From contig OZ360257.1 in NCBI GenBank assembly GCA_977017645.1, forward strand, positions 15,376,001-15,440,000: a DNA stretch of 64,000 bases. The letters run 5' to 3'. Below are positions 20,760 through 64,000 of this stretch, piece after piece; the first letter of the stretch is position 1; every line of letters begins with the position of its first letter. Below the pieces are notes generated by a model. It searched no databases. It saw nothing but the letters and a program-made list of their open reading frames with translations, and had not been told where the DNA came from. Source of the stretch: Torpedo marmorata. Lineage: Eukaryota. The position numbers and the translations under genes were made by a program.

Positions 20760-22150
20760 ATCTCTAAAAAGGGTAATAGAGAGTATCCTGAGAATTACAG
20801 ACAGGTGAGGCCTACGTCAGTGGTGTGAAAACTATCGGAGAGGATTCTTAAGGACACGATGTATGAGCATTTGGAGAAGTACAGTCATCTGAGAGACATA
20901 AGCATGGCTTTGTGAGGGGATGGTCGTGCCTCATGAGCCTCATTGCATTTTCTGAGGAGATAACAAAATATATTGAGGAAAGTGTGACTTTAGACAAGGT
21001 ACATATGGATTTCAGTGAGGGGTTTGACAAGGTTCCCCATGAAAGACTCGGTCAGAAAGACATCAGGCATTCTATCCACGGAATCTCAGCTGTGTGGATA
21101 AAAAATTGGCTTGCCTGTAGAAAGCAGAGGACGGCACAGAAAGTATTCTGTCTGGAAGTCAGTGACTAGTGGAGTTCCGCAGGGATATTTTCTAGAACCC
21201 CTGCTCTTTGTGCATTTTAGAAATGACCGAGATGAAGAGCGGAAGGGTGTGTCAGTAGGTTTGCAAATGATATAATTGTTGGAGGAGCTGCAGCTAGTGT
21301 TGAAGTTTGTCGTATATTACAATGCAGAGATGGGCGCAAAAGTGGCAGATCGACTTCAATCCGGATAAGTTTGGGAAGCATTTTGGAAGGTCAAACCTTG
21401 ATGAATACAGCATTAATGGTCGGATACTTAAGAGCGTGGAGGAACAGAGGGACCTTGAAGTTCAAATCCATAGATCTCTCAATGTTTCCGCGCAGGTTGA
21501 TAGGATAGTTAAGAAGGCCTAGGGATACTGGGTTTCAATAATAGGGAGATTGAGTTCAATATTATAGAGGTCATGTTGCAACTCTACACACCTCTGGTTA
21601 GACCATACTTATAGTATTTTATTCAGTTATGGCCACATCGTTATAGGAAGGATGTGGAAACTGTGGAGAGGGTGCGGAGGAGATTTACCAGTGTATTGCC
21701 TGGATTGGACAATGTCTTCCGAGACAAAGTTAGTAGAGCAGGGACTTTTTTGTTTGGAGTGAAGAAGGATGAGAGGTGACTTAATCAAAGTCTACAAGAA
21801 TATAGACAGTAGATAGGGAAGACAGCAAGCGCCTTTTCGCAGGGAGGGAATAGCAAACACCAGGGGACGTATGCACAAAGTGAAGGGAGGAAGGTTTAGG
21901 GGAGATATCAGAGGTAAATTATTCACACAGAGATGGAGGAGCCGGCAATGCTTTGCCAGGTTGGTGGTGGGGGCTGAATCATTTTGGGTATTTAAGAGAC
22001 TCGTAGACAGGCACATGGATGAACGAAAATTAGAGGATTATATGTTTGGAAGGTTTCAGTATTTTCTTGGTAGGAATATACAGATCGGCACAACATTGAA
22101 GGCCGAATAGCCTGTACTGTGCTGTTATGTTCCATGTTCTATGTTCTATG
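20760..22150 (+). mobile_element. Decayed CR1 LINE 3' part, unit 2
   Basis: Same motifs; ends in the short tandem tail (ATGTTCT)n. Confidence 0.88.
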
Positions 22151-22199
22151 TTTTGAAACTACTTTGCTGCCATTCGTCATTCTGTTCCATGTAATTTAC

Positions 22200-22950
22200 G
22201 GCCTCTCAAAATGCATCACTCAGTGGTTGCTGCGAATGGCAGAAGCTGACTGAGTGGTTGTGAAACTCTATATGAATTGATTTTATATGAGATTGACGAT
22301 CGGTATTTTCCACATTCAGACTTCAATCAGACTTCTCTCTGTAGAGTTATTCTGACCATGTTATTTATTTCCATTGACTGTTCGATGTGACTAACTGTGG
22401 CTTTCATGTTCGATCGATTTTTTGCTATTTGTCACCAAACGCTACGAGCAACATATTGCACTGAAAATAATTCATCTGTAGCGAAATCGCGGTGGAATGT
22501 TCCTCAACATTTTGGTAAAAACACCATTTTATTTATTAACCTCGGGAAGTAATTGATAACGTTGAATTATCCTGCAATGTAATATCATGCTTTTACACCT
22601 TATGAATTTGAGCAGTTATTCTCTGGCAGTAAAAAGTATTTAACTCATTTGCTCTTTATGTCTTTATCTTGGCGCCACATTCCCTGACCATCAGCCGCAT
22701 TATACTGGCTATCCGAGCGAGGAGCAAACTCCGAAGAAAGAACACCAATGGGATCCGCAGTGTCGCAGAGATGGGGAACCGCAGGAAACCGATAATGTTG
22801 CTGCTGGTCATTTCCAGCACGTTTATTCTCTTCAGGATGGCTTTCATATGCGTGCAATTTACTGTTGCGCATATTTTGGAAGGAAGCTGCAATGATACCT
22901 TCACCATTACGGGATTGTCGGGTTATATGCTGAAGTTTTCGATTTCTTGC
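22200..22950 (+). pseudogene. Decayed second GPR139-like paralog (exon 2 remnant)
   Basis: Frame-broken translation GLSKCITQWLLRMAEAD* ... FMFDRFFAICHQTLRATYCTE ... HSLTISRIILAIRARSKLRR ... EMGNRRKPIMLLLVISSTFIL ... GYML, colinear with the intact receptor but very diverged. Confidence 0.85.
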
Positions 22951-22967
22951 CCAATCCCATTGTTAAC

Positions 22968-23197
22968 AACAGCGGTTAGAGCAACGCTATTAAAGCGCCA
23001 GCGACCCGGGTTCATTTCCGGCGCTACTGGAAGGAGCTTGTACGTTCTCCCCATGTCTACGAGTGTTTCCTCCGTGCCCTCCGGTTTCCTCCCAAATAAA
23101 AAAAACCGTAAGGAGGTTGAAAGTTAATTGTGGTATTTTGGTGGGACGGGCTCGTGGGCCGGAAGTGCCTGTTCCCGTTCCCAATGCTAGATTTAAA
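22968..23197 (+). mobile_element. V-SINE-like element at the 3' end of the pseudogene (also ~38025-38250, 50507-50735)
   Basis: GCGGTTAGAGCAACGCTATT...GACCCGGGTTC...GGAGCTTGTACGTTCTCCCCATGTCT. Confidence 0.8.
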
Positions 23198-24089
23198 ATT
23201 TCAACCACTTCCTTGTTGCACTGTCCCAGAGGAAATTCAGAGAGGGTCTGAAGAATCTGGTAAAATGTCCAGTGACTCTTCTTACCAAGGCAAACAACTG
23301 CAAGGAATGACACCAGTTTATTTTCTCACATAACAAAATGAATAACCTCGAACAAAGTAAACAAAAATCACTGTACGTGCATGACCACAAAGTAACCTTC
23401 AAATGAAAATAGGGTCTCTGGATGGTGCACAGAACGTAAAATATACAACACAGTGCAGAACCTTCAGTACACGACTTTGTGCCAATTTACCTGAACCCAT
23501 TCCACAACAATATAATTTCCCAAGCGCACACCTAAAATGCTGTATATTTCTTACACCCTGTTCCTATCTTGGAGACATTAGAATGTCCCTATTGTAGCAA
23601 TCTCCGCCACCACAGGCAATGATTTCGAGGGACCAACCACTATCTGTTTAAAAACGTAACTCCCACATTTGCCTTAAAGTTTCCTTTACTCACCTTAATA
23701 AGCTGTCCTCCGGTATTAACTATTGTCGCCCCAGGAAACAGGTGCTGAATGTCCAAACTTTCTAAGCCCCCTCATAACCTTATATACCTCTGTTTATTCA
23801 CCTGTCATCCACAGAGAAAAGCTCTATCTCTGTCAACCTTGCTCCATATGACATGGTCTCCAATGCAGGCAATAAAATATCCTGATAAATATTTGCACCC
23901 TCTCTAATGCATCTACATACTTACAGTAACAAAGCGAACAGAACTGAACGCAATATTCCAAGTGTGGTCTCACCAGAGGTTTATGGGTCTGCAACATTTC
24001 CTCTCGGCTTTTATCCGACGAATGAAGTCCAACCCACCATACACCTTCTTGACCAGCGCGTCAACTCGCGCAGCAACCTTGAGGGTGTA

Positions 24090-33979: not shown

Positions 33980-35368
33980 CTCTAAAAAGGGTAATAGAGA
34001 GTATCCTGAGAATTACAGACAGGTGAGTCTGACGTCAGTGGTGTGAAAACTATCGGAGAGGATTCTTAAGGACACGATTTATGAGCATTTGGAGAAGTAC
34101 AGTCGTCTGAGAGACATAAGCATGGTTTTGTGAGGGGATGGTCGTGCCTCATGAGCCTCATTGCATTTTCTGAGGAGAGAACAAAATATATTGAGGAAAG
34201 TGTGACTTTAGACAAGGTACATATGGATTTCAGTGAGGCGTTTGACAAGGTTCCCCATGAAAGACTCGGTCAGAAAGACATCAGGCATTCTATCCACGGA
34301 ATCTCATCTGTGTGGATAAAAAATTGGCTTGCCTGTAGAAAGCAGAGGACGGCACAGAAAGTCTTCTGTCTGGAAGTCAGTGACTAGTGGAGTTCCGCAG
34401 GGATATATTCTAGAACCCCTGCTCTTTGTGCATTTTATTAATGACCGAGATGAAGAGCGGAAGGGTGTGTCAGTAGGTTTGCAGATGATATAATGGTTGG
34501 AGGAGCTGCAGTTAGTGTTGAGGTTTGTCGTAGATTACAATGCAGAGATGGGCGCAAAAGTGGCAGATCGACTTCAATCCCGATAATTTTGTGAAGCATT
34601 TTGGAAGGTCAAACCTTGATGAATACAGCATTAATGGTCGGATACTTAAGAGTGTGGAGGAACAGAGGGACCTTGAAGTTCAAATCCATACATCTCTCAA
34701 TGTTTCCGCGCAGGATGATAGGATAGTTAAGAAGGCGTAGGGATGCTGTGTTTCAATAATAGGGAGATTGAGTTCAATAGTATAGAGGTCATGTTGCAAC
34801 TCTACACACCTCTGGTTAGACCATACTTATAGTATTTTATTCAGTTATGGCCACATCGTTATAGGAAGGATGTGGAAACTGTGGAGAGGGTGCGGAGGAG
34901 ATTTACCAGTGTATTTCCTGGATTGGAAAATGTCTTCCGAGGCAAGGTTAGTAGAGCAGGGACTTTTTTGTTTGGAGTGAAGAAGGATGAGAGGTGACTT
35001 AATCAAAGTCTACAAGAATATAGACAGTAGATAGGGAAGACAGCAAGCGCCTTTTCGCAGGGAGGGAATAGCAAACACCAGGGGACGTATGCACAAAGTG
35101 AAGGGAGGAAGGTTGAGGGGAGATATCAGGGGTAAATTATTCACACAGAGATGGAGGAGCCGGCAATGCTTTGCCAGGTTGGTGGTGGGGGCTGAATCAT
35201 TTTGGGTATTTAAGAGACTCGTAGACAGGCACATGGATGAACGAAAATTAGAGGATTATATGTTTGGAAGGCTTCAGTATTTTCGTGGTAGGAATATACA
35301 GATCGGCACAACATTGAAGGCCGAATAGCCTGTACTGTACTGTCATGTTCCATGTTCTATGTTCTATG
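33980..35368 (+). mobile_element. Decayed CR1 LINE 3' part, unit 3
   Basis: Homolog of 20760-22150. Confidence 0.88.
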
Positions 35369-35890
35369 TTTTGAAACTACTTTGATGCCATTCGTCATTC
35401 TGTTCCATGTAATTTACGGCCTCTCAAAATGCATCACTCAGTGGTTGCTGGGAATGGCAGAAGCTGACTGAGTGGTTGTGAAACTGTATATGAATTGATT
35501 TTATATGAGATTGACGATCGGTATTTTCCACATTCAGACTTCAATCAGACTTCTCTCTGTAGAGTTATTCTGACCATGTTATTTATTTCCATTGACTGTT
35601 CGATCGATCGATTTTTTGCTTTTTGTCACCAAACGCTACGATCAAAATATTGCACTGAAAATAATTCATCTGTAGCGAAATCGCGGTGGAATTTTCCTCA
35701 ACATTTGGGAAAAAACACCATTTTATTTATTAACCTCGGGAAGTAATTGATAACGTTGAATTATCCTGCAATGTAATATTAAGAAGTAAACACGAAAATC
35801 TGTAGACACCGTAATAATGTAGTAAAAAACACAAATGCTGGAGAACTCAGCAGGTCAAACAGTGTCTTTTATGTAGCAAAGGTAGAAATA

Positions 35891-35931
35891 CATAACTGAC
35901 GTTTCAGGCTTGAGCCCTTCTTCAAAGTATG
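35891..35931 (-). ncRNA. Mirror copy of the hammerhead-like motif in the inverted arm
   Basis: Reverse complement of 37517-37557. Confidence 0.55.
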
Positions 35932-37516
35932 AGAAAATGCCGGCAGACGTCCGAACAAAGGAGTGAGGGGGGAAGGGTGGGTGGGAAAGGCAGAAGATAA
36001 TAGGTGGAGACAGGAGGGAGGGGACAGTAGCAAAGAGGGGGAGGAGGGATGGCTGGGTAGCTGGAGAAACACAGGAAGGACAGGTGAGGGGGGAGGGGAA
36101 GGGAACAACAAGCAGGTTTAGTGGAAAGCAGAAAAGTCAATGTTAATTCCATCTGGCTGGAGAGTGCCGAGACGGAATATGAGATGTTGTTCCTCCAGTT
36201 TGCGGGTAGTCTTGGTGGGATAGTACATGAGGCCATGGACAGACATGTGAGTGTGGGAGTGTGACCCAGAATTGAAATGGTTGGCCACTGGGAGGTCGCT
36301 GTTGTTGCGAACCGAGCGGAGGTGCTGAGCGAAGCGATCTCCCAATCTACGACCGGTCTCTCCAATGTATAGAAAGCCACAAAGGGAGCACCGGATGCAG
36401 TAAATAAGTCCTCTGGATGTACAAGTGAAGTGTTGCTTCACTTGGAAGGCCTGTTTGGGGCCCTGGACCGTGGTGAGGGGGGACGTGTGGGCGCAGGTGT
36501 TGCACCTCCTGCGGGCACAGGGGAAGGTTCCGGGGGTGCGATGGGTGGGGAGGGACGAGTGTTCCCAAGATAAGGTGTTCCACTCCAGATCTTCTGAAAT
36601 GTCTGCCTTTTTCCACAAACGTGGCTTCCCCTCCACCACCATCAACTCAGCCCTCACCCGCATCTCCTCCATTTCCCGCTCATCTGCCCTGGCCCCCTCT
36701 GCCCCCAGACACAACAAACATAGAATACCCCTCATCCTCACCTACCACCCCACCAGCCTCCGCATCCAACACATTATCCGTCGGAATTTCCGGCACTTGC
36801 TGCAGGATCCCACCACCAGACACATTTTTCCTTCTCCTCCCCTCTCGGCCTTCCGTAGGGACCGCTCCCTCCGTGATTCACTCGTGCACTCGTCCCTCCC
36901 CACCCATCGCACCCCCGGAACCTTCCCCTGTGCCCGCAGGAGGTGCAACACCTGCGCCCACACGTCCCCCCTCACCACGGTCCAGGGCCCCAAACAGGCC
37001 TTCCAAGTGAAGCAACACTTCACTTGTACATCCAGAGGACTTATTTACTGCATCCGGTGCTCCCTTTGTGGCTTTCTATACATTGGAGAGACCGGTCGTA
37101 GATTGGGAGATCGCTTCGCTCAGCACCTCCGCTCGGTTCGCAACAACAGCGACCTCCCAGTGGCCAACCATTTCAATTCTGGGTCACACTCCCACACTCA
37201 CATGTCTGTCCATGGCCTCATGTACTATCCCACCAAGACTACCCGCAAACTGGAGGAACAACATCTCATATTCCGTCTCGGCACTCTCCAGCCAGATGGA
37301 ATTAACATTGACTTTTCTGCTTTCCACTAAACCTGCTTGTTGTTCCCTTCCCCTCCCCCCTCACCTGTCCTTCCTGTGTTTCTCCAGCTACCCAGCCATC
37401 CCTCCTCCCCCTCTTTGCTACTGTCCCCTCCCTCCTGTCTCCACCTATTATCTTCTGCCTTTCCCACCCACCCTTCCCCCCTCACTCCTTTGTTCGGACG
37501 TCTGCCGGCATTTTCT

Positions 37517-37557
37517 CATACTTTGAAGAAGGGCTCAAGCCTGAAACGTCAGTTATG
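37517..37557 (+). ncRNA. Minimal hammerhead ribozyme-like motif in the Penelope 3' region
   Basis: CATACT-TTGAAGA-AGGGCTCAAGCCT-GAAAC-GTC-AGTTATG: core with a C3U variant, stem II, GAAAC/GUC and stem I. Confidence 0.6.
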
Positions 37558-38479
37558 TATTTCTACCTTTGCTACATAAAAGACACTGTTTGACCTGCTG
37601 AGTTCTCCAGCATTTGTGTTTTTTACTGCAATGTAATATCATGCTTTTACACCTTATGAATTTGAGCAGTTATTCTCTGGCAGTAAAAAGTCTTTAACTC
37701 ATTTGCTCTTTATGTCTTTATCTTGTCGCCACATTCCCTGACCATCAGCCGCATTATACTGGCTATCCGAGCGAGGAGCAAACTCCGAAGAAAGAACACC
37801 AATGGGAACCGCAGTGTCGCAGAGATGGGGAACCGCAGGAAACCGATAATGTTGCGGCTGGTCATTTCCAGCACGTTTATTCTCTTCAGGATGGCTATCA
37901 TATGCGTGCAATTTACTGTTGCGCATAATTTGGAAGGAAGCTGCAATGATACCTTCACCATTGCGGGATTGTCGGGTTATATGCTGAAGTTTTTGATTTC
38001 TTGCCCAATCCCATTGTTAACAACAGCGGTTAGAGCAACGCTATTACAGCGCCAGCGACCCGGGTTCATTTCCGGCGCTACTGGAAGGAGCTTGTACGTT
38101 CTCCCCATGTCTACGAGTGTTTCCTCCGTGCCCTCCGGTTTCCTCCCCAATAAAAAAAACGTAAGGAGGTTGAAAGTTAATTGTGGTATTTTGGTGGGAC
38201 GGGCTCGTGGGCCGGAAGTGCCTGTCCCGTTCCCAATGCTAGATTTAAAATTTAAACCACTTCCTTGTTGCACTGTCCCAGAGAAAATTCAGAGAGGGTC
38301 TGAAGAATCTGGTAAAATGTCCAGTGACTCTTCTTACCAAGGCAAACAACTGCAAGGAATGACACTAGTTTATTTTCTCACATAACAAAATGAATAACCT
38401 CGAACAAAGTAAACAAAAATCACTGTACGTGCATGACCACAAAGTAACCTTCAAATGAAAATTGGGTCTCTGGATGGTG

Positions 38480-48299: not shown

Positions 48300-49690
48300 A
48301 TCTCTAAAAAGGGTAATAGAGAGTATCCTGAGAATTACAGACAGGTGAGGCTTACGTCAGTGGTGTGCAAACTATTGGAGAGGATTCTTAAGGACGGGAT
48401 TTATGAGTATTTGGAGAATTACAGTCGTCTGAGGGACATAAGCATGGTTTTGTGAGGGGATGGTCGTGCCTCATGAGCCTCATTGCATTTTCTGAGGAGA
48501 TAACAAAATATAAATAGGAAAGTGTGACGGTAGACCAGGTACATATGGATTTCAGTGAGGCGTTTAACAAGGTTCCCCATGAAAGACTCGATCAGAAAGA
48601 CATCAGGCATTCTTACCACGGAATCATGGCTGTGTGAATAAAAAATTGGCTTGCCTGTTGGAAGAAGAGGACGGAACAGAAATTATTCTGTCTGAACGTC
48701 AGTGACTAGTGGAGTTCCGCAGGTATATTTTCTTGAACCCTTGCTCTTTGTGATTTTTGGAAATGACCTCGATGAAAAGCGGAAGGGTGTGTCAGTAGGT
48801 TTGCAGACGATATAATGGTTGGAGGAGCAGCAGTTAGTGTTGAGGTTTGTAGTAGATTACAATGCAGAGATGGGCGCAAAAGTGGAAAATCGAGTTCAAT
48901 CCGGTTAAGTTTGTGAAGCATTTTGGAAGGTCAAACCTTTATGAATACTGCATTAATGGTCGGATACTTAAGAGTGTGGAGGAAGAGAGGGACCTTGAAG
49001 TTAAAATCCATAGATCTCTCAATGTTTCCGCGCAGGTTGATAGGATAGTTAAGAAGGCCTAGGGATGCTGGGTTTCAATAATAGGGGGATTGAGTTCAAT
49101 AGTATAGAGGTTATGTTGCAACTCGACACACCTCTGGTTAGACCATACTTATAGTATTTTATTCAGTTATGGCCACATCGTTATAGGAAGGCTGTGGAAT
49201 CTGTGGAGAGGGTGCGGAGGAGATTTACCAGGATATTGTCTGGATTGGAAAATGTCTTCCGAGGCAAGGTTAGTAGAGCAAGGACTTTTTTGTTTGGAGC
49301 GAATAAGGATGAGAGGTGACTTAATCAAAGTATATAAGAATATATACAATAGATAGGGTAGGCAGCAAGCGCCTTTTCGCAGGGAGGGAATGGCAAACAC
49401 CAGGGGACGTATGCACAAAGTGAAGGGAGGTAGGTTGAGGGGAGATATCAGAGGTAAATTATTCACACAGAGATGGAGGTGCCGGCAATGCCTTGCCAGG
49501 TTGGTGGTGAGGGCTTAAACATTCCGGGTATTAAGAGACTCGTAGACAGGCACATGGATGAACGAAAATTAGAGGATTCAGAGGTTGGAAGGTTTCAGTA
49601 TTTTCTTGGTAGGAATATAAAGGTCGGCACAACATTGAAGGCCGAACAGCCTGTACTGCGCTGTCATGTTCCATGTTCTATGTTCTATGT
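48300..49690 (+). mobile_element. Decayed CR1 LINE 3' part, unit 4
   Basis: Homolog of 20760-22150. Confidence 0.88.
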
Positions 49691-49738
49691 TTTGAAACAA
49701 CTTTGCTGCCAATCGTTATTCTGTTCCATGTAATTTAC

Positions 49739-50490
49739 GGCCTCTCAAAATGCATCTCTCAGTGGTTGCTGGGAAAGGCAGAAGCTGACTGAGAAGTTGT
49801 GAAACTGTATATGAATTGATTTTATATGAGATTAACGATCGGTATTTTCCACATTCAGACTTCAATCAGACTTCTCTCTGTAGAGTTATTCTGACCATGT
49901 TATTTATTTCCATTGACGATTCAATGTGACTAACTGTGGCTTTCATGTTCGATCGATTTTTTGCTATTTGTCACCAAAATCTACGAGCAAAATATTGCAC
50001 TGAAAATAATTCATCTCTAGCGAAAGCGCGGTGGAATTTTCCTCAACATTTGGAGAAAGCACCATTTTATTCACTAACCTCGGGAAGTAATTGATAACGT
50101 TGAATTATCCTGCAATGTAATATCATGCTTTTACACCTTATGAATTTGAGCAGTTATTCTCTGGCAGGAAAAAGTCTTTAACTCATTTGCTCTTTATGTC
50201 TTTATCTTGACGCCACATTCCCTGACCATCAGCCGCATTATACTGGCTAACCGAGCGAGGAGCAAACTCCGAAGAAGGAACAACAATGGGAACCGCAGTG
50301 TCACAGAGATGCGGAACCGCAGGAAACCGATAATGTTGCTGCTGGTCATTTCCAGCACGTTTATTCTCTTCAGGATGGCTTTCATATGCGTGCAATTTAC
50401 TGATAAGCAGTTTTTGGAAGGAAGCTGCAATGATACCTTCACCATTGCGGGATTGTCGGGTTATATGCTGATGTTTTCGAATTTTTGCCC
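49739..50490 (+). pseudogene. Decayed GPR139-like paralog, unit 4
   Basis: Same motifs (FDRFFAICH, KYCTE, EMRNRRKPIMLLL) with stops and frameshifts. Confidence 0.83.
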
Positions 50491-51372
50491 AATCCCATTG
50501 TTAACAATAGCGGTTAGAGCAACGCTATTTCAGCGCCAGCGACCCGGGTTCATTTCCGGCGCTACTGACAGGAGCTTATACGTTCTCCCCATGTCTACGT
50601 GTGTTTCCTCCGTGCCCTCCGGTTTCCTCCCAAATAAAAAAAAAAGTAAGGAGGTTGAAAGTTAATTGTGGCATTTTGGTGGCACGGGCTCGTGGGTCGG
50701 AAGTGCCTGTTCCCGTTCCGTATGCTACATTTAAAATTTAAACCACTTCATTGTTGCACTGTCCCCGAGAAAATTCAGAGAGGGTCTGAAGAATCTGTTG
50801 AAATTTCCAGTGACTCTTCTTACCAAGGCAAACAACAGCAAGGAATGACAGCAGTTTATTTTCTCAAATAACAAAATGAATAACCTCGAACAAAGTAAAC
50901 AAAAATCACTGCACGTGCATGATCACAAAGGGACCTTCAAATGAAAATTGGGTCTCTGGAAGGTGCAAAGAACATAAAATATACAACACACTGCAGACCC
51001 TTCTGTACACGATGTTGTGCCAATTTACCTAAACTCATTCCACAATAATATAATTTCCCAAGCGCACGCCTGTAACGCGAAATCTTTCTTACACCCTGTT
51101 CCTATCTTGGAGACATTGGAATGTCCCTATTGTTGCAACCTCCACCACCACCACAGGCAATGATTTCGAGGGACCAACCACTATCTGTATAAAAACGTAC
51201 CTCCCACATTTGCCTTAAAGTTTCCTTTACGCATCCGGTATTAACTATTGTCGTCTCAGGAAACAGGTGCTGAATGTCCAAACATCCTAAGCCCCCTCAT
51301 AATATTATATACCTTTGTTTATTCACCTGTCATCCACAGAGAAAAGCTCTATATTTGTCAACCTTGCTCCAT

Positions 51373-53424
51373 TAATATAAATGGGATTAAAGTAGGTGCA
51401 GAAGAGCATAAAATTAGTCTGTTTGCAGATGATGTATTAATATATATGACAAAATCTATTAAATCACTTCAACAATTAGATAAGATATTGAGGGATTATG
51501 GTGAGATATCTGGATATAAAATAAATTCGGATAAAAGTGAGATAATGGCTCTATCTCAAGGAGACTATACTAAATGTAAAGAAGTTACAAAATTTAAATG
51601 GGCTAAAGAAGCAATTAAATATTTGGGAGTTAAAGTAGATACAAAATTAGAAAATTTATATAAATTAAATTATATACCTTTATTTCAGAAAATAAAGAAA
51701 GATTTGGATAATTGGAAAGATTTACCTATAACTTTAATGGGAAGAGTGAATTGTATTAAAATGAATATTTTTCCAAGAGTTCAATATCTTTTTCAATCTA
51801 TACCTTATGGTATTCCTCAAAAATTTTTTAAAGATTTACAAATTATTATTAGAAAGTTTTTATGGAAAGGAAAATTGGCAAGGGTAAGTATAGATAAATT
51901 AACTTGGGAATATGAAATGGGTGGATTACAACTTCCTAATTTTCAATATTATTATAAGGCAGCACAATTAAAATTTATAAATGAATTTTTTGATTTAACT
52001 AAAAATACGGCTTGGATTAATATAGAATTGAGTAATATAGGGGAAAGATATAAGGAAGATATTATTTATAAATGGAATTCCAAATTATTATTGATTAAAA
52101 AGAAAAAGTCACCGATTATTAAACACTTATTGGAAATTTGGAATCATCTAGATAATGAAATAGGACGAAAAGGATCAATATCTTTAAATATGCCATTATA
52201 TCAGAACCTATTGTTACCTTTTTCTATTGATAATCAATTTTTAAAATTATGGTATCAAAAAGGAATTAAGAAGATTAAAGATTGTTTTGAGGCAGGAAGA
52301 TTTGTTACTTTTTCTAGATTGAAGGAAAAATTTGGAATAATGGACAATACAATTTTGGCTTATTATCAGGTTAAAGGATTTTTAGTTGAGAAATTAGGGA
52401 ATCAATTAATATCTCCTAGACAAGATGGGTTAGAGTTACTAATTACTAATGGAAATGTTAATAAATTTATATCACAAATGTATAAATTACTTCAGAGAAA
52501 GATGCCTAAAGTAGGACTACATAAATCTAGATTAAATTGGGAGTCAGATTTAAATATTAGTATAGACGAACAACATTGGAAAGAACTATGTAAATTGAGT
52601 ATGACTAAAATTATTAATGTTAGATATAGATTAGTACAATATAACTTTTTTCATCAATTATATATAACACCTAAAAAATTAAAGAAATTTAATCCGGCAT
52701 TATCAGATATGTGTTTTAGGTGTAAAGATGAAATAGGTTCTTTTGTACACTGTACATGGTCATGTTTAAAAATTCAAAATTTTTGCTCTAAAGTTAAGGA
52801 TTTTTTAGATAGAATTTTTAATATTACGATTCCAATGGACCCTATGATATTTCTATTTGGAGATATTAAAAAAATTAATATTAGAAATAGATTGAATATG
52901 TATCAAATAGAATTTTTACGATTTGTGTTAGCGATTTCAAAAAAATGTATCGCTATTACTTGGAAATCAGATTTAGATTTGAATTTGGATAGATTACATG
53001 CAGAGTTACGCACGTGTATACCATTGGAAAAAATTACCTATAATCTCCGAGATAAATACCATTTCTTTTTGAAAATGTGGAGCCCATATATGAGAATTAT
53101 GGGTATGAATTAATTCTCTAAAAGTTAGTAACGCTGACAAAAGTAACCTCCAATATATAAGTAGAGTTAGCTTGTAATGGTTTTCTCCTCATACTAACTC
53201 TCATAACTTTATTATTCATTCTATTCTTTTTTTTCTTTTAACTAATACTTTTTTTTCATATTTTTCTTTTTCTTTTATTAGAATAGTGAGGGAGGGTTGG
53301 GGAGGGGAGGGTGGGAGGGGGGGGAGGTAATATATCACATGTATTTTGAATAATATACTATTTTTGATCTATGTATTTTGTGATTTTAAAAATTAAATAA
53401 AATTATAAAAAAAAAATAAAAAAA
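51373..53424 (+). mobile_element. 5'-truncated L1-clade LINE (ORF2 RT C-terminal part, CCHC domain, 3'UTR, polyA)
   Basis: Uninterrupted frame to 53113 with KISLFADD, IKYLG and CFRC-x8-H-x4-C. AT-rich, G-rich 3'UTR tract, A tail. TSD AACCTTGCTCCAT at 51360-51372 and 53425-53437. Absent from other units. Confidence 0.95.
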
Positions 53425-54800
53425 AACCTTGCTCCATATGACATGGTCTCCAATCCAGGCAATAGAATATCTTGATAAATATCTGCACCCTCTCTAATGC
53501 ATCTACATAATTGCAGTAACAAAGCGACCAGAACTGGACGCAATATTCCAAGTGTGGTCTCACCAGAGGTTTATGGGTCTGCAAAATTTCCTCCTGGCTT
53601 TTATCCGACGAACGAAGGCCAACCCATCATACACCTTCTTGACCAGCGCGTCAACTAGCGCAGCAATCTTGAGGGTGTATTAACATGGACCCCAAGATCT
53701 CCTAGTTCCTCCAAACTGTTAGAATCCTGCCATTAACACGCACTGCACCTTCGATTCGACATCCAAAATGCACTACACTTAACCGTAATGAACTCAATCT
53801 GCCACTTCTCTGTCCAACTCCGCATCCTGTCTACATCCCGTTATAACCCGCGAGAGCCTTCTGCACTCCCGACAACACTGTGAACCGTTGTATCATTAGC
53901 AAATGCAAAGAAAATAGAGCATAGAAAGAAACTCTCTGATTGGACTTGATGCCTTCGAACCAACCCTCAGCGTTGATGCATTACCGCAAATACCACAGGC
54001 GATCCAAACACTCCTCGGATCTGTGTGGCGTTTGCAACAAAAATTAACTCAGCATTTCAAGCGGGACGGTTCACGTCACAGTTCATCGCCACACATTCAC
54101 AGCGTCAGCGACGGGGGTTCAAATACAGCGCTGCCCTGGAAGGAGTTTTGTTTCTTTCCCTCGTGAACTGCTCTAATTCCCCGGGTACCCTGGTTTCTTC
54201 CCACTCACGAAAAAATGTATGGGATTGACATGTTCATTGGATGTAATTTGGCAGCACGGGCTTCATGAGCTAAGGGTCTGTATATTTTAAATAAAAGTTC
54301 AGTCAAGCCATCATGGCAGATGACGAGTGAAAACAAATCCTCAGGTCAGACCGACTGATGAACGTTTGAAAACTCATGGGAACAAAGTTATTTTCAGGTG
54401 TATAATAATGAAAAGGAAAATATATGTGATAATCAGGATCATTGGGAACAAACAACGGAGAGAATCGCGAACAAGTCACCCCAGGGACGAGGTTAAAGCG
54501 AAGCAAATGGAGATAGATGAACGCGACACTCCAGTGTCACGGTTCCACGTCAGGTGATGCAGCGAGCTCGCACCTGAACCTTGTTTATTACGATAACTCG
54601 TGTTAGTTACTCTGGGCGGAGCGATCTCAGGTCATTAAGTGAGAATGAACTGATAGTGTTTGTTAAATCGAGTATGTGGAGGTGTTATGTAATTTAGTGT
54701 CCCAGGAGAACAGCTGTCCTATAAATTAGGCTTCACAGTGAAACTCTTCGTTTTCACATATTCACATGTGCTGTAGAGAAACCGCTCTTATCCTCAAAAG

Positions 54801-54861
54801 ATGCCACGAATGGAAGCCACGGAGATCTTCTATCCCATTCTTGCAATTGTCGGCATTCCTG
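54801..54861 (+). CDS. GPR139-like coding exon 1 of unit 5 ((MPR)MEATEIFYPILAIVGIP-G); its own exon 2 is deleted
   Basis: ATGs at 54801 and 54810, intact donor GTAAGT at 54862, TATA at 54720. Confidence 0.72.
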
Positions 54862-57229
54862 GTAAGTGATTTTGCTGCGATCTCCGCCGAGTGTTTTCTG
54901 GTTGTCCGTATTCNNNNNNNNNNNNNNNNNNNNNNNNNNNNNNNNNNNNNNNNNNNNNNNNNNNNNNNNNNNNNNNNNNNNNNNNNNNNNNNNNNNNNNN
55001 NNNNNNNNNNNNNNNNNNNNNNNNNNNNNNNNNNNNNNNNNNNNNNNNNNNNNNNNNNNNNNNNNNNNNNNNNNNNNNNNNNNNNNNNNNNNNNNNNNNN
55101 NNNNNNNNNNNNNNNNNNNNNNNNNNNNNNNNNNNNNNNNNNNNNNNNNNNNNNNNNNNNNNNNNNNNNNNNNNNNNNTCGTCGCTCAGCCAGGATTTAA
55201 ATAATCTTTTGACCTGAAGTTGTAGAAGTTAGACAATGTCCAGTCACTTCGATCATATGATAGATTCTGCAATCCAGGCAACACCTTTGCACACTCTCCA
55301 CAGCATCCAGATATTTCCTATAAGGAGGCAACCATAACTGAACGCCATGATTTGAACTGTATATCTTCACGTGTCCGGGGAAAAGTGAAAAGGCGTTATT
55401 TTGCCTGCTATCCAGGCAAATCAAGCCACATAAAATACAGCAGGCAGCGCAAGGATAAAAATAGAACAGGTGATAGTGTTACAATAAAGTACAGCATGAC
55501 GTGTTAAAGACAGGAGTGCTGTTAGTCTATGCAAGTCTTTACCTTTTCCTCGTGAGAGGGCTATTCAAGAGCCTGCCATCAGGAATGTAAGTGCCCTTGA
55601 ATCTGGTTGGGTGCGTTTTTTTCGAAACTCGTGCTTCTTCTGCCCGGCGGCAGGGAGACGGAGAGACTGCGGTAGGGGTGGAACAGATTCGTGAACATGT
55701 ACAGTGATTATTTATCCCGGAGATGGCGGGAGATATGAACGCAGTTTATGGTCGGGGGATTGACTTATTGATAACACTGAATTGCGTTAATTTCTCTTCT
55801 TAGTTTCTTGTGACCCCGACCGTAGCAGTTTCCACACCAATCTGTGATGCACCCGCACCGGACACTTTCTATTGTTCATCTGCACACAACGGACAGGATC
55901 AACGGGGGCATGCCGAAATTCCTCAGCTTCTGAGGAAGTGAAAGCGTTGTTGCTCTTTCCATTCCGTAGTGCCAATGTAATGTTGGCAACTGCATAATTT
56001 ACAGGAACATACAAATGTTTCGATTAGTTTATTCCCAAAGATTCCATTGATACAATTATGTTAAATGTGTTGGCTTGTTTTTCTGGTGTTTCCTGGTTTT
56101 TCAAAACCAGGCTGCAATACCATCCTAGGAACGAAAATTATCCATATTTATTTGGAGGAATTGGGCATGTTTCGTCGTCTGATTTGTAACTTCCACCAAG
56201 TATAATGTGCAGCAAGATCATGAAGAAAATACCTTAAATCAAAGACAACGACAGGAACAGCATTTGGAAAGGAAATTGAAAATAATTCCGAGGTCCAGGA
56301 TGAATCCGCAGTTGGAGAGAAGGGGATTGATTAACGGGAGTTAGCATCGCTTTTTTGTTGGCAGATTATATACAACCAATTTTGTGTTTGTTTCGAGGAA
56401 CAGCTCAATGTATCGATGAGAGTACTGCAGTTGATGAAGTTGACAGGAATTTCGGTACGACCCTGTCAAATATCCAGATAATGGGCTTGCACGGTTAGCG
56501 TAGCGGTTAGTGCAACACATTTACAGGGCCAGTGTCACGGGTTCGAACCCGGCCCTGTCTGTGAGGAGTTTGTCCGTTCTCCATGTGTCTGCGTGGGTTT
56601 CCTCCGGGTGATCCTGTTTCCTCCCACCCTTTAAAACGTAGTTTATTGGGTTATCTGAGCGGCACATGCTGTGGGCCAGAAAGGCCTGTTACGGTGCTGT
56701 ATGTCTAAATAATGCACTGGTCCACAGTTCAAGGGATCAAAGGCAATTTTGAAATTCGGATTCAATGTTTGCCTCGTAACAGAAGGTAATAGTTCATGGT
56801 GGAAAATTGAATATAGAATATAAGAATCTTCAACGTAGTATAGGCAATTTGGGTCTCAGTGTTATGCCAACCTGATAATCTCCGCTTCCAAGAATTCCGA
56901 GAATTTCCGTCCTTTATATCGATCATTTTCTCTCTGTTCCATGCACCAATATACTAGACTCTTAAAATATCCTAATGTACCTGCCTGTAAAACAGTTGCC
57001 AGCAGTGAATCCCATGCACCCATTACTCTCTGTGTGAAGATTGTGCCTCTAACCCTCCCCATGTACTTACTCCGAAGCACTTTTAAACGCCCCCCCCCGC
57101 CTGAATGGAGGTTTTCCTTTGCGTGTGGAAACCTTTCTTCCACAGTGCCAAAACGTCAAACTATTGGGGGGACTCATCGGATTGAACAGCGTGTGTGTGT
57201 GTGTTTCTGTATGTGTGTGTGTGTGTGTG

Positions 57230-57274
<45 letters not shown>

Positions 57275-57579
57275 GCAGCGATAGTGGAGTTTTCGGGACG
57301 ATACATTTCCTCAGGGCCATGCTTAAAGTTCAGCTCAGCAAGGTCAGGTTTGACCCTCTTTTCAGGAGCGCTGGATCTGATCTTGGCTCCCATATGACAT
57401 CAACGTTATTAAAGTAAATGCGCACAAGTCTAAGTAGAGCAAACATGCAGTCTCATCGCGCTTATGCCACTCTCTTAAACCTTCCAGAGAAACGTGGTTC
57501 AATAATAATATAATTGCAGCAAATCACGAAGTGTCTGCTGTTCTGCCCTTCAGATCAGAGAACATTATTAATCTAAATC

Positions 57580-58970
57580 TCTAAAAAGGGTAATAGAGAG
57601 AATCCTGAGAATTACAGACAGGTGAGGCTGACGTCAGTGGTGTGAAAACAATTGGAGAGGATTCTTAAGGACAGGATTTATGAGCATTAGGAGAGGTACA
57701 GTCGTCTGCGGGACATAAGCATGGTTTTGTGAGGGGATGGTCGTGCCTCATGAGCCTCATTGCATTTTCTGAGGAGAAAACAAAACATAATGAGGAAAGT
57801 GTGACGGTAGACCAGGTACATATGGATTTGAGTGAGGCGTTTGACAAGGTTCCCCATGAAATACTGGATCAGAAAGGCATCAGGCATTCTATCCACGGAA
57901 TCTTGGCTGTGTGAATAAAAAATTGGCTTGCCTGTAGAAAGAAGAGGACGGAACAGAAAGTATCCTGTCGGAACATCAGTGGCTAGTGGAGTTCCGCAGG
58001 GATATTTTCTTCAACCCTTGCTCTTTGTGATTTTTGTAAATGACCTAGATGAAGAGCGGAAGCGTGGGTCAGTAGGTTTGCAGATGATATAATGGTTGGA
58101 GGAGCTGCAGTTAGTGTTGAAATCTGTCGTAGATTGCAATGCAGAGATGGGCGCAAAAGTGGCAGATCGAGTTCAATCCGGATAAGTTTGTGAAGCATTT
58201 TGGAAGGTCAAACCTTGCTGAATACAGCATTAATGGTCGGATACTTAAGAGTGTGGAGGAAGAGAGGGACCTTGAAGTTAAAATCCATAGATCTCTCAAT
58301 GTTTCCGCGCAGGTTAATAGGATAGTTAAGAAGGCCTATGGGATGCTGGGTGTCAATAATAGGGGGATTGCGTTCAATAGTATAGAGGTCATGTTGCAAA
58401 TCAACACACCTCTGGTGAGACCATACTTATAGTATTTTATTCAGTTATGGCCACATCGTTATGGGAAGGATGTGGAAACTGTGGAGAGGGTGCGGAGGAG
58501 ATTTACCAGGGTATTGCCTGGATTGGAAAATGTCTTATGAGGCAAGGTTAGTAGAGCAAGGACTTTTCTATTTGGAGCGAAGAAGGATGAGAGGTGACTT
58601 CATAAAAGTCTACAAGAATATATACAATAGATAGGGTAGACAGCAAGCGCCTTTTTCGCAGGGAGGGAATAGCAAACACCAGGGGACGTATGCACAAAGT
58701 GAAGGGAGGAAGGTTGAGGGGAGGTATCAGAGGTAAATTATTCACACAGAGATGGAGGTGCCGGCAATGCCTTGCCAGGTTGGTGGTGGGGGCTGAAGCA
58801 TTTTGGGTATTTAAGAGACTCGTAGACAGGCACATGGATGAACGAAAATTAGAGGATTAAGTGGTTGAAAGGTTTCAGTATTTTCTTGGTAGGAATATAC
58901 AGGTCGGCACAACATTGAAGGCCGAATAGCCTGTAATGTGCTGTCGTGTTCCATGTTCTATGTTCTATGT
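57580..58970 (+). mobile_element. Decayed CR1 LINE 3' part, unit 5
   Basis: Homolog of 20760-22150. Confidence 0.88.
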
Positions 58971-59018
58971 TTTGAAACTACTTTACTGCCAATCGTCATT
59001 CTGTTCCATGTAATTTAC

Positions 59019-59540
59019 TGCCTCTCAAAATGCATCACTCAGTGGTTGCTGGGAATGGCAGAAGCTGACTGAGAAGTTGAGAAACTGCACATGAATTGAT
59101 TGTACATGAGATTAAAGATTGGTATTTTCCACATTCAGACTTCAATCCGACTTCTCTCTGTAGAGTTATTCTGACGATTTTATTTATTTCCATTGACTGT
59201 TCAATGTGACTAACTGTGTCTTTCATGTTCGATCGATTTTTTGCTATTTGTCACCAAACGCTCCGAGCAAAATATTGCACTGAAAATAATTCATCTGTAG
59301 CGAAAGCGCGGTGGAATTTTCCTCAACATTTGGGAAAAAACACCATTTTATTTATTAACCTCGGGAAGTAATTGATAACGTTGAATTATCCTGCAATGTA
59401 ATATCATGCTTTTACACCTTATGAATTTGAGCAGTTATTCTCTCGCAGGAAACAGTCTTTAACTCATTTGCTCTTTATGTCTTTATCTTGGCGCCACATT
59501 CCCTGACCATCAGCCGCATTATACTGGCTAACCGAGCGAG
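59019..59540 (+). pseudogene. Decayed GPR139-like paralog, unit 5, 3'-truncated
   Basis: Homologous to ~22200-22720; ends at the deletion junction GCGAGGAGGCCAACCC. Confidence 0.78.
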
Positions 59541-61368
59541 GAGGCCAACCCACCACACACCTTCTTGACCAGCGCGTACACTAGCGCAGCAACCTTGAGG
59601 GGTGTATTAACATGGACCCCAAGATCTCTCAGTTCCTCCAAACTGTTAGAACTTCTGCCATTAACACGCACTCCGCCTTCGATTCGACCTCCAAAGTGCA
59701 CTACACTTAACCGTATAGAACTCAATCTGCCAATTCTCTGCCCAACTCCGCATCCTGTCTATATCCCGTTATAACCCACGACAGCCTTCTGCACTCCAGA
59801 CAACACTGTGAACCGTTGTATCATTAGCAAATGCAAAGAAAATAGAGCACAGAAAGAAATTCTCTGATTGGACTTGATGCCTTCGAACCAACCCTCAGCG
59901 TTGATGCATTACCCCAAATACCACAGGCGATCCAAATACTCCTCGGATCTGTGTGGCGTTTGCAACAAAAATTAACTCAGCATTTCAAGCGGGACGGTTC
60001 ACGTCACAGTTCAGCGCAACACATTCACAGCGTCAGCGACGCGGGTTCAAATACAGCTCTGCCCTGGAAGGAGTTTTATTGCTCTCCCTCGTGAACTGCT
60101 CGGTTTCCCCGGGTACTCTGGTTTCTTCCCACTCACGAAAAAAGTATGGGTTTGGCATGTTCATTGGATGTAATTTGGCAGCACGGGCACTTGCGGAGCT
60201 GCATGACGTGGTCAGTAAACAGGCCCACCCCGAGACAATTCCAGTCACAGTCGTTGACTTTAATCAGGCCTGTCTTAAGAGAGCCCTGCGCAATTATCAC
60301 CAGCACGTAACCTGCTGTACCAGAGGCACCAGCTCATTTGAACATTGCGACAACAACATAAGGAATGCCTACGTTCTTTCATGATAGAGCAGGTTGGTGT
60401 TTGCTGTCCACCCCATCTAAACCCCTCATGATGTTGTCTACCCCCAATAATTCACCTCTTCCCCTTCATCGCTGCAGAGAAAAGCCCCAGCTCTGTCAAC
60501 CTTCCTTCATATGATAGGTTCTGCAATCCAGGCAACACCTTTGCACACTCTCCAGAGCATCCATATACTTCCTATAATGAGGCAACCATAACTGAACGCA
60601 ACGATTTGAACTGTTTATCGTCACGTATCCGGGGAAAAGTGAAAAGGCGTTATTTTGCCTGCTATCCAGGTAAATCAAGCCACATAAAATACAGCAGGCA
60701 GTGCAAGGATAAAAATAGTACAGATGATAGTGTTACAATAAAGTACAGCATGACGTGTTAAAGACAGGAGTGCTGTTAAGCTATGCAAGTCATTACCTTT
60801 TACTCTTGAGAGGTCTATTCAACAGCCTGCCAGCAGGAATGTAAGTGACCTTGAATCTGGTTGGGTGCGTTTCTTCCAAACTCGTGCTTCTTCTGCCCGG
60901 CGGCTGGGAGAAGGAGAGACTGCGGGAGGAGTGGAACAGATTCTTTAACATGTATAGTGATTATTTATCTGGGAGACGGCGGGAGATATGAACGAAGTCG
61001 ATGGACGGGGGATTGGATTATTGATAACACTGAATTGCGTTCATTACTCTCCGTGGTTTCGTAAGACTCCGAGCTCAGCAGTTTCCACACCAATCTGTGA
61101 TGCACCCGTACCGGACACTTTCTATTGTTCATCTGCACACAACGGACAGGGTCAACGGGGGCATGCCGAAATTCCTCAGCTTCTGAGGAAGTGAAAGCGT
61201 TGCTGCGCTTCCCATTCAGTAGTGCCCATGTAATGTTGGCAACTATATAATTTACAGGAACATACAAATGTTTCGATTAGGTTATTCCCAAAGATTCCAT
61301 TGTAACAATTATGTTAAAGGTGTTGGCTTGATTTTCTGGTAGTTTCCTGGTTTTCCATCTTGTTACAG

Positions 61369-62282
61369 GTAACCTGCTCTCGATTGTGGTCCTGTCCCGG
61401 GGAATGTACGGCCTCTCCAAAGGAGAGATTCGTTACATGGTAACCATGGCAGTTGCAGACACAATGGTCTGTGTGTTTAACGTTACAGTGATATTCGTCT
61501 TCGGCTATCATTTTCCTCATTCATTCCTGGCACATACCTCCACTTGTCGTCTTACAGACTTCATACAGAAATCCAGCGTGCAATTCTCTGTCTGGGCCAC
61601 GGTATCGTTCACAGTCGACCGCTTCATTGCCATTTGTTGCCAGCAATTCAAAACAAAATATTGTACCGAAAGAAACGCCACGGTAGTTCTTACGACTGTG
61701 TGTGTGCTGAGCTTTTTGATGAACATTCCAGTTTATTTCCGGTATGAACCCCATTACATTGCGGGTGATGTCAAATGGGGCTGCAGTACTATAACACGAT
61801 ATATTTCTTCACCAGCATGGCAGACTTACAGATGGTTGTCTAAACTTATGGTACCACTGGTGCCCCTGCCGCTGATGTTGCTGTTGAATTCTCTCACCGT
61901 CCGACACATTTTACTTGTCAGCAGAGCTCGGAGGGCTTTGAAGAGCCGTGGGGACGGTCAAGTATTTGATCCCGAGATGACGAACCGGAGAACGTCCATT
62001 ATATTGCTCTTCGCCATTTCTTGTACCTTCATAGCGTTGTGGACACCGGTTACGATAATTGACCAATACTTCCATCTCACATTAAGCTTTTCGATCGACG
62101 CCCCGAAGTCACTGCTTCTGGCAATTAGAATCACGATTCTGCTGATGTATTTGAGCTGCTGTACAAACACTTGTGTTTATGCAATGACACAGAGGAGATT
62201 CCGGGATGAGGTGAAGAAGGTGGCAAAATATCCATTTATTGCCCTTGTACGGTTTTTAAAACCTATGACGCAGCAACAATGA
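61369..62282 (+). CDS. GPR139-like exon 2 of unit 6 (own exon 1 deleted; probable partner of the exon at 54801-54861)
   Basis: Acceptor TTACAG ends at 61368; open 914-nt exon with 7TM motifs. Confidence 0.88.
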
Positions 62283-62738
62283 ATCAGAGATCATGGCCCT
62301 GTTCCTCCGTCCGCTTCCAATGTCGAATCTCGTCCTTTTTATTAATAATTCCCTGTAACGTAAGCCCCGTAAACCAAGCCAACCACACACACCATTCCCA
62401 CACCAGCAATTCGGGACGTGTCCTCCTGTACTGCTAAATGGAGGCCATCCGCAAATTAGGCGACTACTGGATAACTGGATATTGTAAATGTCCAAACAAT
62501 TAAATGAAACGTTCAACGACGTACTGCATGAATCACATTTTTCCCAGGTTAATCAATATTTCAAATTTGAGTTCAGGTTGGTTGTCGCATGTACGATGAC
62601 CTCATGAGAGTGTTTTTTGATTTGTTATTTTTACAACATACCAGTTGGCATCTCATACATAGAAGAAGGAGTGAGACACAACTAAAAAGTGCAGAGTTAC
62701 AGAGAAGGAGAGAAAGTGAGAGTACGAGAGAGATAACG

Positions 62739-62774
<36 letters not shown>

Positions 62775-64000
62775 AAATGGAGAGAGCGAGTGAGAGAGAG
62801 AGAGAGAGAGTCAGACAGAAAGAGAGAGGGGGAGAGGGAGAGATAGAGAGAGAGTTCAGTCGGTACGGAACAAAGGAGACATAATTTCACTATCTTGGGA
62901 CAAATACATAAAACCCATAGATTTCTCAGCAGGCCTGGTCCTCTGTGCCAGATCTTTTAAGGAAATTCCGCTGGAGAGCAGAATCGAACGTCATCGGGTC
63001 AAGCATTTGCAAATTCTTTTCTTATTCAATTTTTAAAACGGCAGTATCCCAAACACAGGTCGTGTCATATTTAATGTTCTGTAATATAGCATAACAATAA
63101 AATAAACATGAATCTTCAATTTCTGCAGGATATAGATCAGGTGAATACTTGGGTAGGGCGTTTCCAGCTGGAATTTACTACCGAAAACTGCAAATAGTGC
63201 ACGGCACATGCACTAAATGTTCCATCAGGAAGGAAACGTGATGAACAGAGAGACATGGGAGTCTGAATTCATAGTTGCCTGAATTCAGCAACACGGTTTT
63301 TAGGGTGATGGTGCCTTCCTAGTTCGAGGATAATATATAGGATCTCGAATTTCACAAACACTGTTCAGACTGTACTTGAAGTATTGTTTGCAGTTCTGGT
63401 CGCCACACTATTTATGTGATTGGACCGGAGTTGTTGCAGTGGAAATTCACCAGGATGTTGCCTGGAAAGGAGGACGAGCTGTGGAAGGTGCTTAATAGGA
63501 AGGGGCCTATTTTCCCTGGAGCACAGCAGGTTTAGGAACGAGCTGTGAAATATAAGTAAGATGATGAGAGTCACCGATAGGGAAGATGTTCAAAATCTAT
63601 TTCTAATGCCAGGGTTAACAAAAGTAAGTGGACACGAGTTTAAGGTGAGTTTTAAGGGGAATCTAGGAGATTGTCTTTTTAAACAGGCATATGAAGCAAA
63701 GAAATATGCTGGAGGAACTCAGTAGGTCGAGCATCATTCGTGGAGATAAGATACATCGACGTTTCGGGTCAGAAACCTTCATCACGTTTAATATCTGATT
63801 TGCTCTTCTCGGGGATGCGGTGAAGTCAGATATAATTCTCCAAACACATCAGTAAGGAAGCCACTATTTCTGTTGGGTGCTGCACTTGACTCAATTACCT
63901 TTATGAAGTTATCTCTCACGTATTCGGTGATGATCTATTTTATTACCCCGGACGTCTGCTCAACAGCTGAATTCCCATCAATGGGTTCTAATTTCCTTAA

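Follow-up and report, generated by a model that had tools for sequence, protein, structure and literature searches.

Fusion of neighbouring genes has been described in several systems. The Lepore and anti-Lepore fusions of the HBD and HBB globin genes are reported to result from unequal homologous crossing-over or from conversion, with gene length kept normal (PMC4041002). In Drosophila, neighbours were fused through several deletions and then amplified to give Sdic, which is described as joining the unrelated genes sw and AnxB10 and as having a shown role in sperm competition (PMC7475035). Read-through or transcription-induced chimeras arise with both genes intact (PMC4136775, PMC3041646); PMC4136775 gives a read-through range of 5-170 kb and records no poly(A)-signal deletions in 81 upstream partners. 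Chimeric duplicates are common according to a review (PMC3449122).

Here we analysed a 64-kb window (C80:15,376,001-15,440,000 of a 6.2-Gb genome; coordinates are window positions unless prefixed with C80) in which two adjacent receptor units, 5 and 6, form one fused unit. As in Lepore, the 5' part and promoter of one paralog stand on the 3' part of its neighbour, with a net loss of one gene; unlike Lepore, two non-homologous deletions are involved and spacer is left in the intron (PMC4041002). Lepore expression has been shown (PMC4041002); that of the fused unit here is putative. As in Sdic, adjacent genes were fused by several deletions and then amplified (PMC7475035). Unlike in Sdic, the partners are paralogs about 90% alike and not unrelated genes giving a new protein, and the product is an ordinary family member on which no selection was seen (PMC7475035). 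The locus shares with read-through chimeras the predicted joining of an upstream exon to a downstream neighbour over former intergenic DNA (PMC4136775, PMC3041646), and its predicted 6.5-kb span is close to the lower limit of the 5-170 kb given for them (PMC4136775). Unlike those chimeras (PMC4136775, PMC3041646), it carries DNA deletions that would leave the chimera as the sole possible full product. Paralog fusion genes are well known; this locus differs from them in its geometry, because intergenic spacer has become part of the intron. No report of this two-deletion geometry with spacer as intron was found in the literature searched (most subscription papers lay outside the search).

The receptor array and the fused unit

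The array consists of tandem, two-exon class A GPCR genes (Pfam 7tm_1), of which 53 were modelled in four blocks totalling 864 kb between 14.2 and 16.15 Mb of C80; more may lie outside. Frames of at least 310 aa were present in 48/53 genes, or 45/50 when the fused copies were left out. The protein search returned 561 relatives; 119 of the 120 listed bear cartilaginous-fish names. Among the matches listed, 'probable G-protein coupled receptor 139' was the usual label and Narcine bancroftii was closest, at 77-80% identity; these matches point to a ray as the likely source organism. The best solved-structure match was human GPR139, at a distance (E 7.6e-11). A one-to-one relationship with human GPR139 is made unlikely by this weak match and by the number of copies, and at such a distance the family would be a related expanded group and not the human GPR139 orthologue. 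GPR139-like orphan receptors are greatly expanded in sharks and rays, and this expansion may outweigh the fusion in importance. The literature search found nothing on this cartilaginous-fish GPR139-like family, and the available text of PMC6504862 contains no shark data.

The fused unit lies on the plus strand. As the initial annotation had proposed, unit 5 keeps a TATA-like box (TATAAAT, 54720-54726; TATAAA is equally placed in 49/53 array genes), the coding part of exon 1 (54801-54861; 20 codons plus 1 nt, phase 1) and the donor GTAAGT at 54862. Exon 1 encodes the N-terminus and most of TM1, and the N-termini of the shark homologues P0015 and P0019 resemble it. The intron remnant of unit 5 (54862-56100) belongs to a lineage with short, 1.2-kb introns (tree clade 99/99); it still ends in the pyrimidine tract, but its final 14 nt, with the AG, are gone. 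A captured intergenic spacer of 4.08 kb follows (56101-60188), now within the predicted intron; remnants of repeats and candidate pseudo-exons lie in this spacer, together with three hexamers of poly(A) type. It also holds a fragment of a decayed older GPR139-like pseudogene with stops and frameshifts (58962-59544, tblastn). The unit 6 remnant (60189-61368) comes from a lineage with long, 1.77-kb introns and retains an intact acceptor, followed by an open exon 2 of 914 nt (61369-62282) that encodes the remainder of the 7TM receptor. A candidate poly(A) signal, AATAAA, is at 63096-63101, and another, ATTAAA, at 62499.

Removal of the predicted 6,507-bp intron between 54861 and 61369 would join the two exons into 975 nt, or 324 aa plus a stop, and the computed join agrees with the earlier proposal that this splice would give a full receptor. 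The claim that the phases match was true and uninformative: the exon 1 coding part is 61 nt in 52/53 genes, and one intron phase is common to all copies, so a match carries no information. Pfam 7tm_1 was matched (E 1e-20 for exon 2; 74.8 bits vs gathering cutoff 30.5), and a simple hydropathy profile gave six peaks above 1.6, compared with the seven helices of the class. Three diagnostic 9-mers each occur once in the window: ATGGAAGCC in exon 1, ATGTACGGC, which is common to all three fused copies in the genome, and GGAGAGATT, found in the window copy only.

Several other features of the array were observed. In the lineages of units 1, 3 and 4 (window 763, 26220 and 40250), ATA replaces the first ATG and the start lies three codons later, giving 321 aa; unit 3 also has TATATA in place of TATAAA. 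Genes at C80:14270539, 14813037, 15461854 and 16108949 have their promoter/intron type and exon 2 in different clades and are ordinary recombinant chimeras, so chimerism as such is ordinary here; the first of them is cut short by a stop after 120 aa. Additional copies resembling exon 1 (84-85% identity) precede a gene by ~2 kb or 370 bp (C80:14698588, 15232322, 16003132; 14829464, 15477299, 16124373, 16144913), possibly as alternative first exons or as remnants of other deleted units. Same-strand decayed GPR139-like pseudogenes, copied with the units, were also seen at 22104-23298, 35322-38350 and 49643-50842, and the recurrence of this second, long-decayed pseudogene in the spacers implies that each repeat originally comprised two genes. 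The spacer of unit 3 contains an insertion (35818-37630) with a very young 744-bp inverted repeat (99.9% identity) and open frames between and across its arms, which we take to resemble a Penelope-like element. A LINE insertion with a 622-aa open frame and a partial Pfam RVT_1 match occupies 51245-53113 in the spacer before unit 5.

Deletion junctions, parental lineages and genomic copies

Junction 1 (56100/56101) cuts 14 nt upstream of the expected start of exon 2 and resumes in the downstream spacer; unit 5 has thereby lost its acceptor and its exon 2 together with the 3' flank (~4.45 kb vs the parent-type pair described below). The site given in the initial annotation therefore held, at ~56101; the jump of ~6 kb given with it did not, since a size of ~6.1 kb is obtained only against spacers of the type of units 1/2. 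Junction 1 is either blunt or joined through no more than 2 nt of homology. At junction 2, the previously noted jump with GGC microhomology was recovered at 60186-60188; here unit 6 lost its promoter and first exon along with the 5' part of its intron (~1.22 kb), and kept an intact acceptor and exon 2. Both breakpoints are non-homologous (0-3 nt of homology), and neither has the form of a Lepore-type single homologous crossover. Two DNA contigs of a related organism (about 8% differences) match from exactly 56101 and have undeleted-type letters before it, which fits deletion 1 as the derived state; none of that organism's contigs bridged junction 1, a result that carries no weight either way.

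Two parental lineages were resolved. In a sliding comparison, the 5' intron fell among genes whose introns are 1.2 kb long (95-97%); the 3' intron, like exon 2, fell in the unit 2 lineage, with introns of 1.77 kb; the trees agreed (99/99 and 100/98, respectively). A single clade for both intron ends was rejected (p-AU 3e-150, AU test on 48 of 53 rows, 5 being dropped for insertions). Among 42 adjacent undeleted pairs, the best alignment was obtained with C80:14,726,765 + 14,737,092, a parent-type pair in which a unit-2-type gene lies downstream of one with a short intron. Against this pair, the fused unit aligned in three collinear blocks (92-94%) separated by gaps of ~4,446 and ~1,216 bp. The fused product and its exon-2 lineage were 92.6-92.9% identical, 4 of the differing residues lying in exon 1. 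These results indicate that the fused halves descend from two different paralog lineages; the trees, the AU test and the parent-type pair together bear out the original suggestion of two half-deleted units with complementary losses.

Each junction has three exact matches in the 6.2-Gb genome, and the two are always paired. Single-junction forms were absent among genome pattern matches with at most one mismatch and from the 864 kb read; the pattern search could miss diverged forms elsewhere in the genome. The three fused copies have exon 1 at C80:15,358,153, 15,430,801 (the window copy) and 16,077,930. In all three, the promoter, donor, acceptor and frame are intact and the joined frame is open at 324 aa, with no disabling stop, frameshift or lost splice site. 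Exon 1 is identical across the copies, which differ outside it by about 3-8 substitutions/kb (~0.5-1%). Two copies lie in a tandem block of ~33 kb with an offset of 72.7 kb, and the third lies within a block of >150 kb that matches at 98-99.6%, so the unit was copied with its neighbours and was not singled out. The copy at 16.08 Mb could be a segmental duplicate or an uncollapsed haplotype. On the larger scale, C80:15206001-15482186 and 15976798-16129262 are near-identical blocks (98-99.6%), with two fused copies in the first and one in the second; they reflect either a segmental duplication or two haplotypes that differ in copy number.

Splicing, selection and competing explanations

We tentatively favour, at somewhat less than an even chance, the view that two deletions fused adjacent paralogs into a spliceable but drifting, likely redundant two-exon unit that probably still produces some full-length mRNA. 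In this model, one deletion stripped unit 5 of its acceptor, exon 2 and 3' flank and another stripped unit 6 of its promoter and exon 1, both losses being seen in the sequence, and the 4.08-kb spacer between them came to be enclosed in the predicted 6,507-bp intron. Transcription from the unit 5 promoter would no longer meet its own 3' end and would run on, and in part of the transcripts the donor at 54862 would pair with the acceptor at 61368. Correct splicing would compete with an acceptor newly formed at 56110 and with pseudo-exons in the spacer. The deletion that removed the unit 5 acceptor was probably the earlier one, because unit 5 exon 1 could then already have served unit 6 exon 2, making the second deletion cheap; a single two-jump event would fit equally well, since no single-junction form was found. 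Later duplication of the fused block inside larger blocks gave the three copies now seen. With ~45 open sister genes, a fused copy is probably dispensable.

Another explanation, which we regard as unlikely though a serious contender, is that the fusion gene is normally expressed and selected as a working receptor with the unit 5 promoter and the unit 6 coding body. All signals being intact in 3/3 copies speaks for it, as does the lack of single-junction forms among the genome pattern matches (at most one mismatch). To look for selection, we compared exon 2 with non-coding sites. Exon 2 carried 10/890 private substitutions vs 22/2,254 at non-coding sites within the fused unit itself (p = 0.70, Fisher test), that is, no slowdown relative to its flanks. 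Nine sister genes (a set excluding a tenth, deep-branching gene) had 63/8,020 vs 255/20,438 in non-coding sites, a ratio of 0.63 (p = 0.0007). The difference between the fused unit and this sister ratio of 0.63 was only suggestive, at low power (one-sided p = 0.09). Exon 2 changes absent from 38 other genes comprised 7 replacement and 2 silent ones, with a neutral expectation of 2.7:1, and the strictly post-deletion changes among the three copies comprised 4 and 1, respectively. Substitutions after duplication numbered 5/914 in exon 2 vs 67/12,106 in non-coding sequence (p = 1.0). Pairwise dN/dS was 0.5-1.0 in most pairs across the whole array, which makes selection difficult to discern in ordinary copies as well.

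Individual residues gave a mixed picture. Two changes shared by the fused copies alter conserved residues, which weighs against a selected receptor: C34Y (residue kept in 92/110 homologues) and G239C (kept in 45/45 other array genes and 102/110 homologues). So does V40E of the window copy, where a charge occurs in 0/45 array genes and 0/110 homologues. On the other side, H139N restores the family consensus, and the two hits to 74 family-conserved columns that are specific to the fused copies are within the sister-gene range, sister genes carrying as many. The probability that a neutral frame escapes stops and frameshifts, with indel ratios of 0.035-0.1 assumed, was 0.56-0.73 at 5 changes and 0.18-0.38 at 15; over the whole 26-change history it is perhaps only 0.05-0.19, a point in favour of selection, with the exon 2 stem branch including time preceding the deletions. 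The amplification of the copies together with their neighbours, and not singly, tells against it. Overall there is no sign of selection keeping the fused gene, exon 2 rates being neutral-like at low power, and it is plausible that exon 2 is intact without selection. The initial annotation had taken function as the explanation of the intact exons; this was not upheld, given that 45/50 other genes are open as well, that neutral survival is 0.18-0.38 and that exon 2 shows no slowdown. The strongest version, in which crippling losses cancel to rebuild a working receptor, 4 kb of spacer with its old receptor pseudogene and its new decoy acceptor becomes intron in one step and the promoter swap is selected in three copies, is doubtful, slightly more so than selected expression as such.

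Equally unlikely, in our view, is that units 5 and 6 are two adjacent dead halves that give no full receptor through mis-splicing or termination in the spacer, with an exon 2 too young to have decayed; the neutral look of exon 2 would fit this. Splice sites were predicted with an approximate scoring matrix. The true acceptor (ending at 61368) scored 9.1 bits and ranked only 7 of 417 AGs, which favours mis-splicing; the true acceptor type ranked first in two normal introns, and the sites scoring at least as high here all lie in the captured spacer. Junction 1 creates a candidate cryptic acceptor (AAACCAG|G, 56104-56110), overlooked in the initial annotation, that places CAG|G ten bases past the retained pyrimidine tract with no upstream AG for ~40 nt; its predicted use leads to a 51-aa product. 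Against this, the 56110 acceptor has just 5.8 bits (rank 24 of 417) and no strong donor within 400 nt. A cassette exon starting at 56111 was discarded, as only three weak donors, all beyond a stop, occur within 400 nt.

The strongest candidate pseudo-exon (68 nt, 57554-57621) has a predicted acceptor of 9.2 bits and donor of 11.3 bits, and its inclusion would truncate the protein at 27 aa; all four spacer pseudo-exons tested truncate, at 21-30 aa. These pseudo-exons, and the three poly(A)-type hexamers that came in with the spacer, would favour loss of the receptor. The pseudo-exon density, 1.85/kb, is nevertheless inside the range of three normal introns (0-2.9/kb), and vertebrate introns routinely skip such pseudo-exon and cryptic sites. 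Moreover, six other array genes have open frames of 321-336 aa across introns of 4,988-10,384 bp, and open frames across such 5-10 kb sister introns would favour splicing of the fused unit. Two further candidates were set aside: the spacer pseudogene as a splice target (no AG near 58960-58980 is in the top 25 acceptors), and translation of exon 2 alone from Met33, which would be without TM1 and was considered unlikely. Separately, genes at C80:14369513, 15245413, 15299897 and 16016216 were seen to have 7.3-7.6 kb introns containing a sense-strand retrotransposon (SCAN and integrase domains, Pfam) with the receptor frame open.

An assembly artefact, with the junctions as mis-joins, is very improbable. 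The array is highly repetitive and the third copy may be an uncollapsed haplotype, but both junctions recur to the exact base in three mutually divergent copies, which makes a mis-join unlikely; the breakpoints are non-homologous, unlike repeat mis-joins, and the block has its own private substitutions throughout. More improbable still is a never-broken gene in which the intron end was duplicated and spacer DNA inserted from a template: the intron copies 55247-56103 and 60501-61357 are 91.6% alike, but each is nearer to other array members (95-97%), monophyly of the intron ends is rejected, and the sequence from 60189 onward includes intron sequence absent from the short-intron lineage.

Significance of the fused unit

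The reading we prefer, a spliceable but drifting fusion of two paralogs, has its limits: the receptor it would encode is ordinary for the family, the array already contains ordinary recombinants of exon 1 and exon 2, and no selection is detectable. If a fused mRNA is made, the locus would be a natural test of how the spliceosome handles never-purged intergenic DNA that was suddenly turned into intron, with the undeleted parent-type genes of the same genome as controls. It would also reveal that paralog chimeras can form with no homologous crossover, and would be a case in which a single gene is annotated as two pseudogenes.
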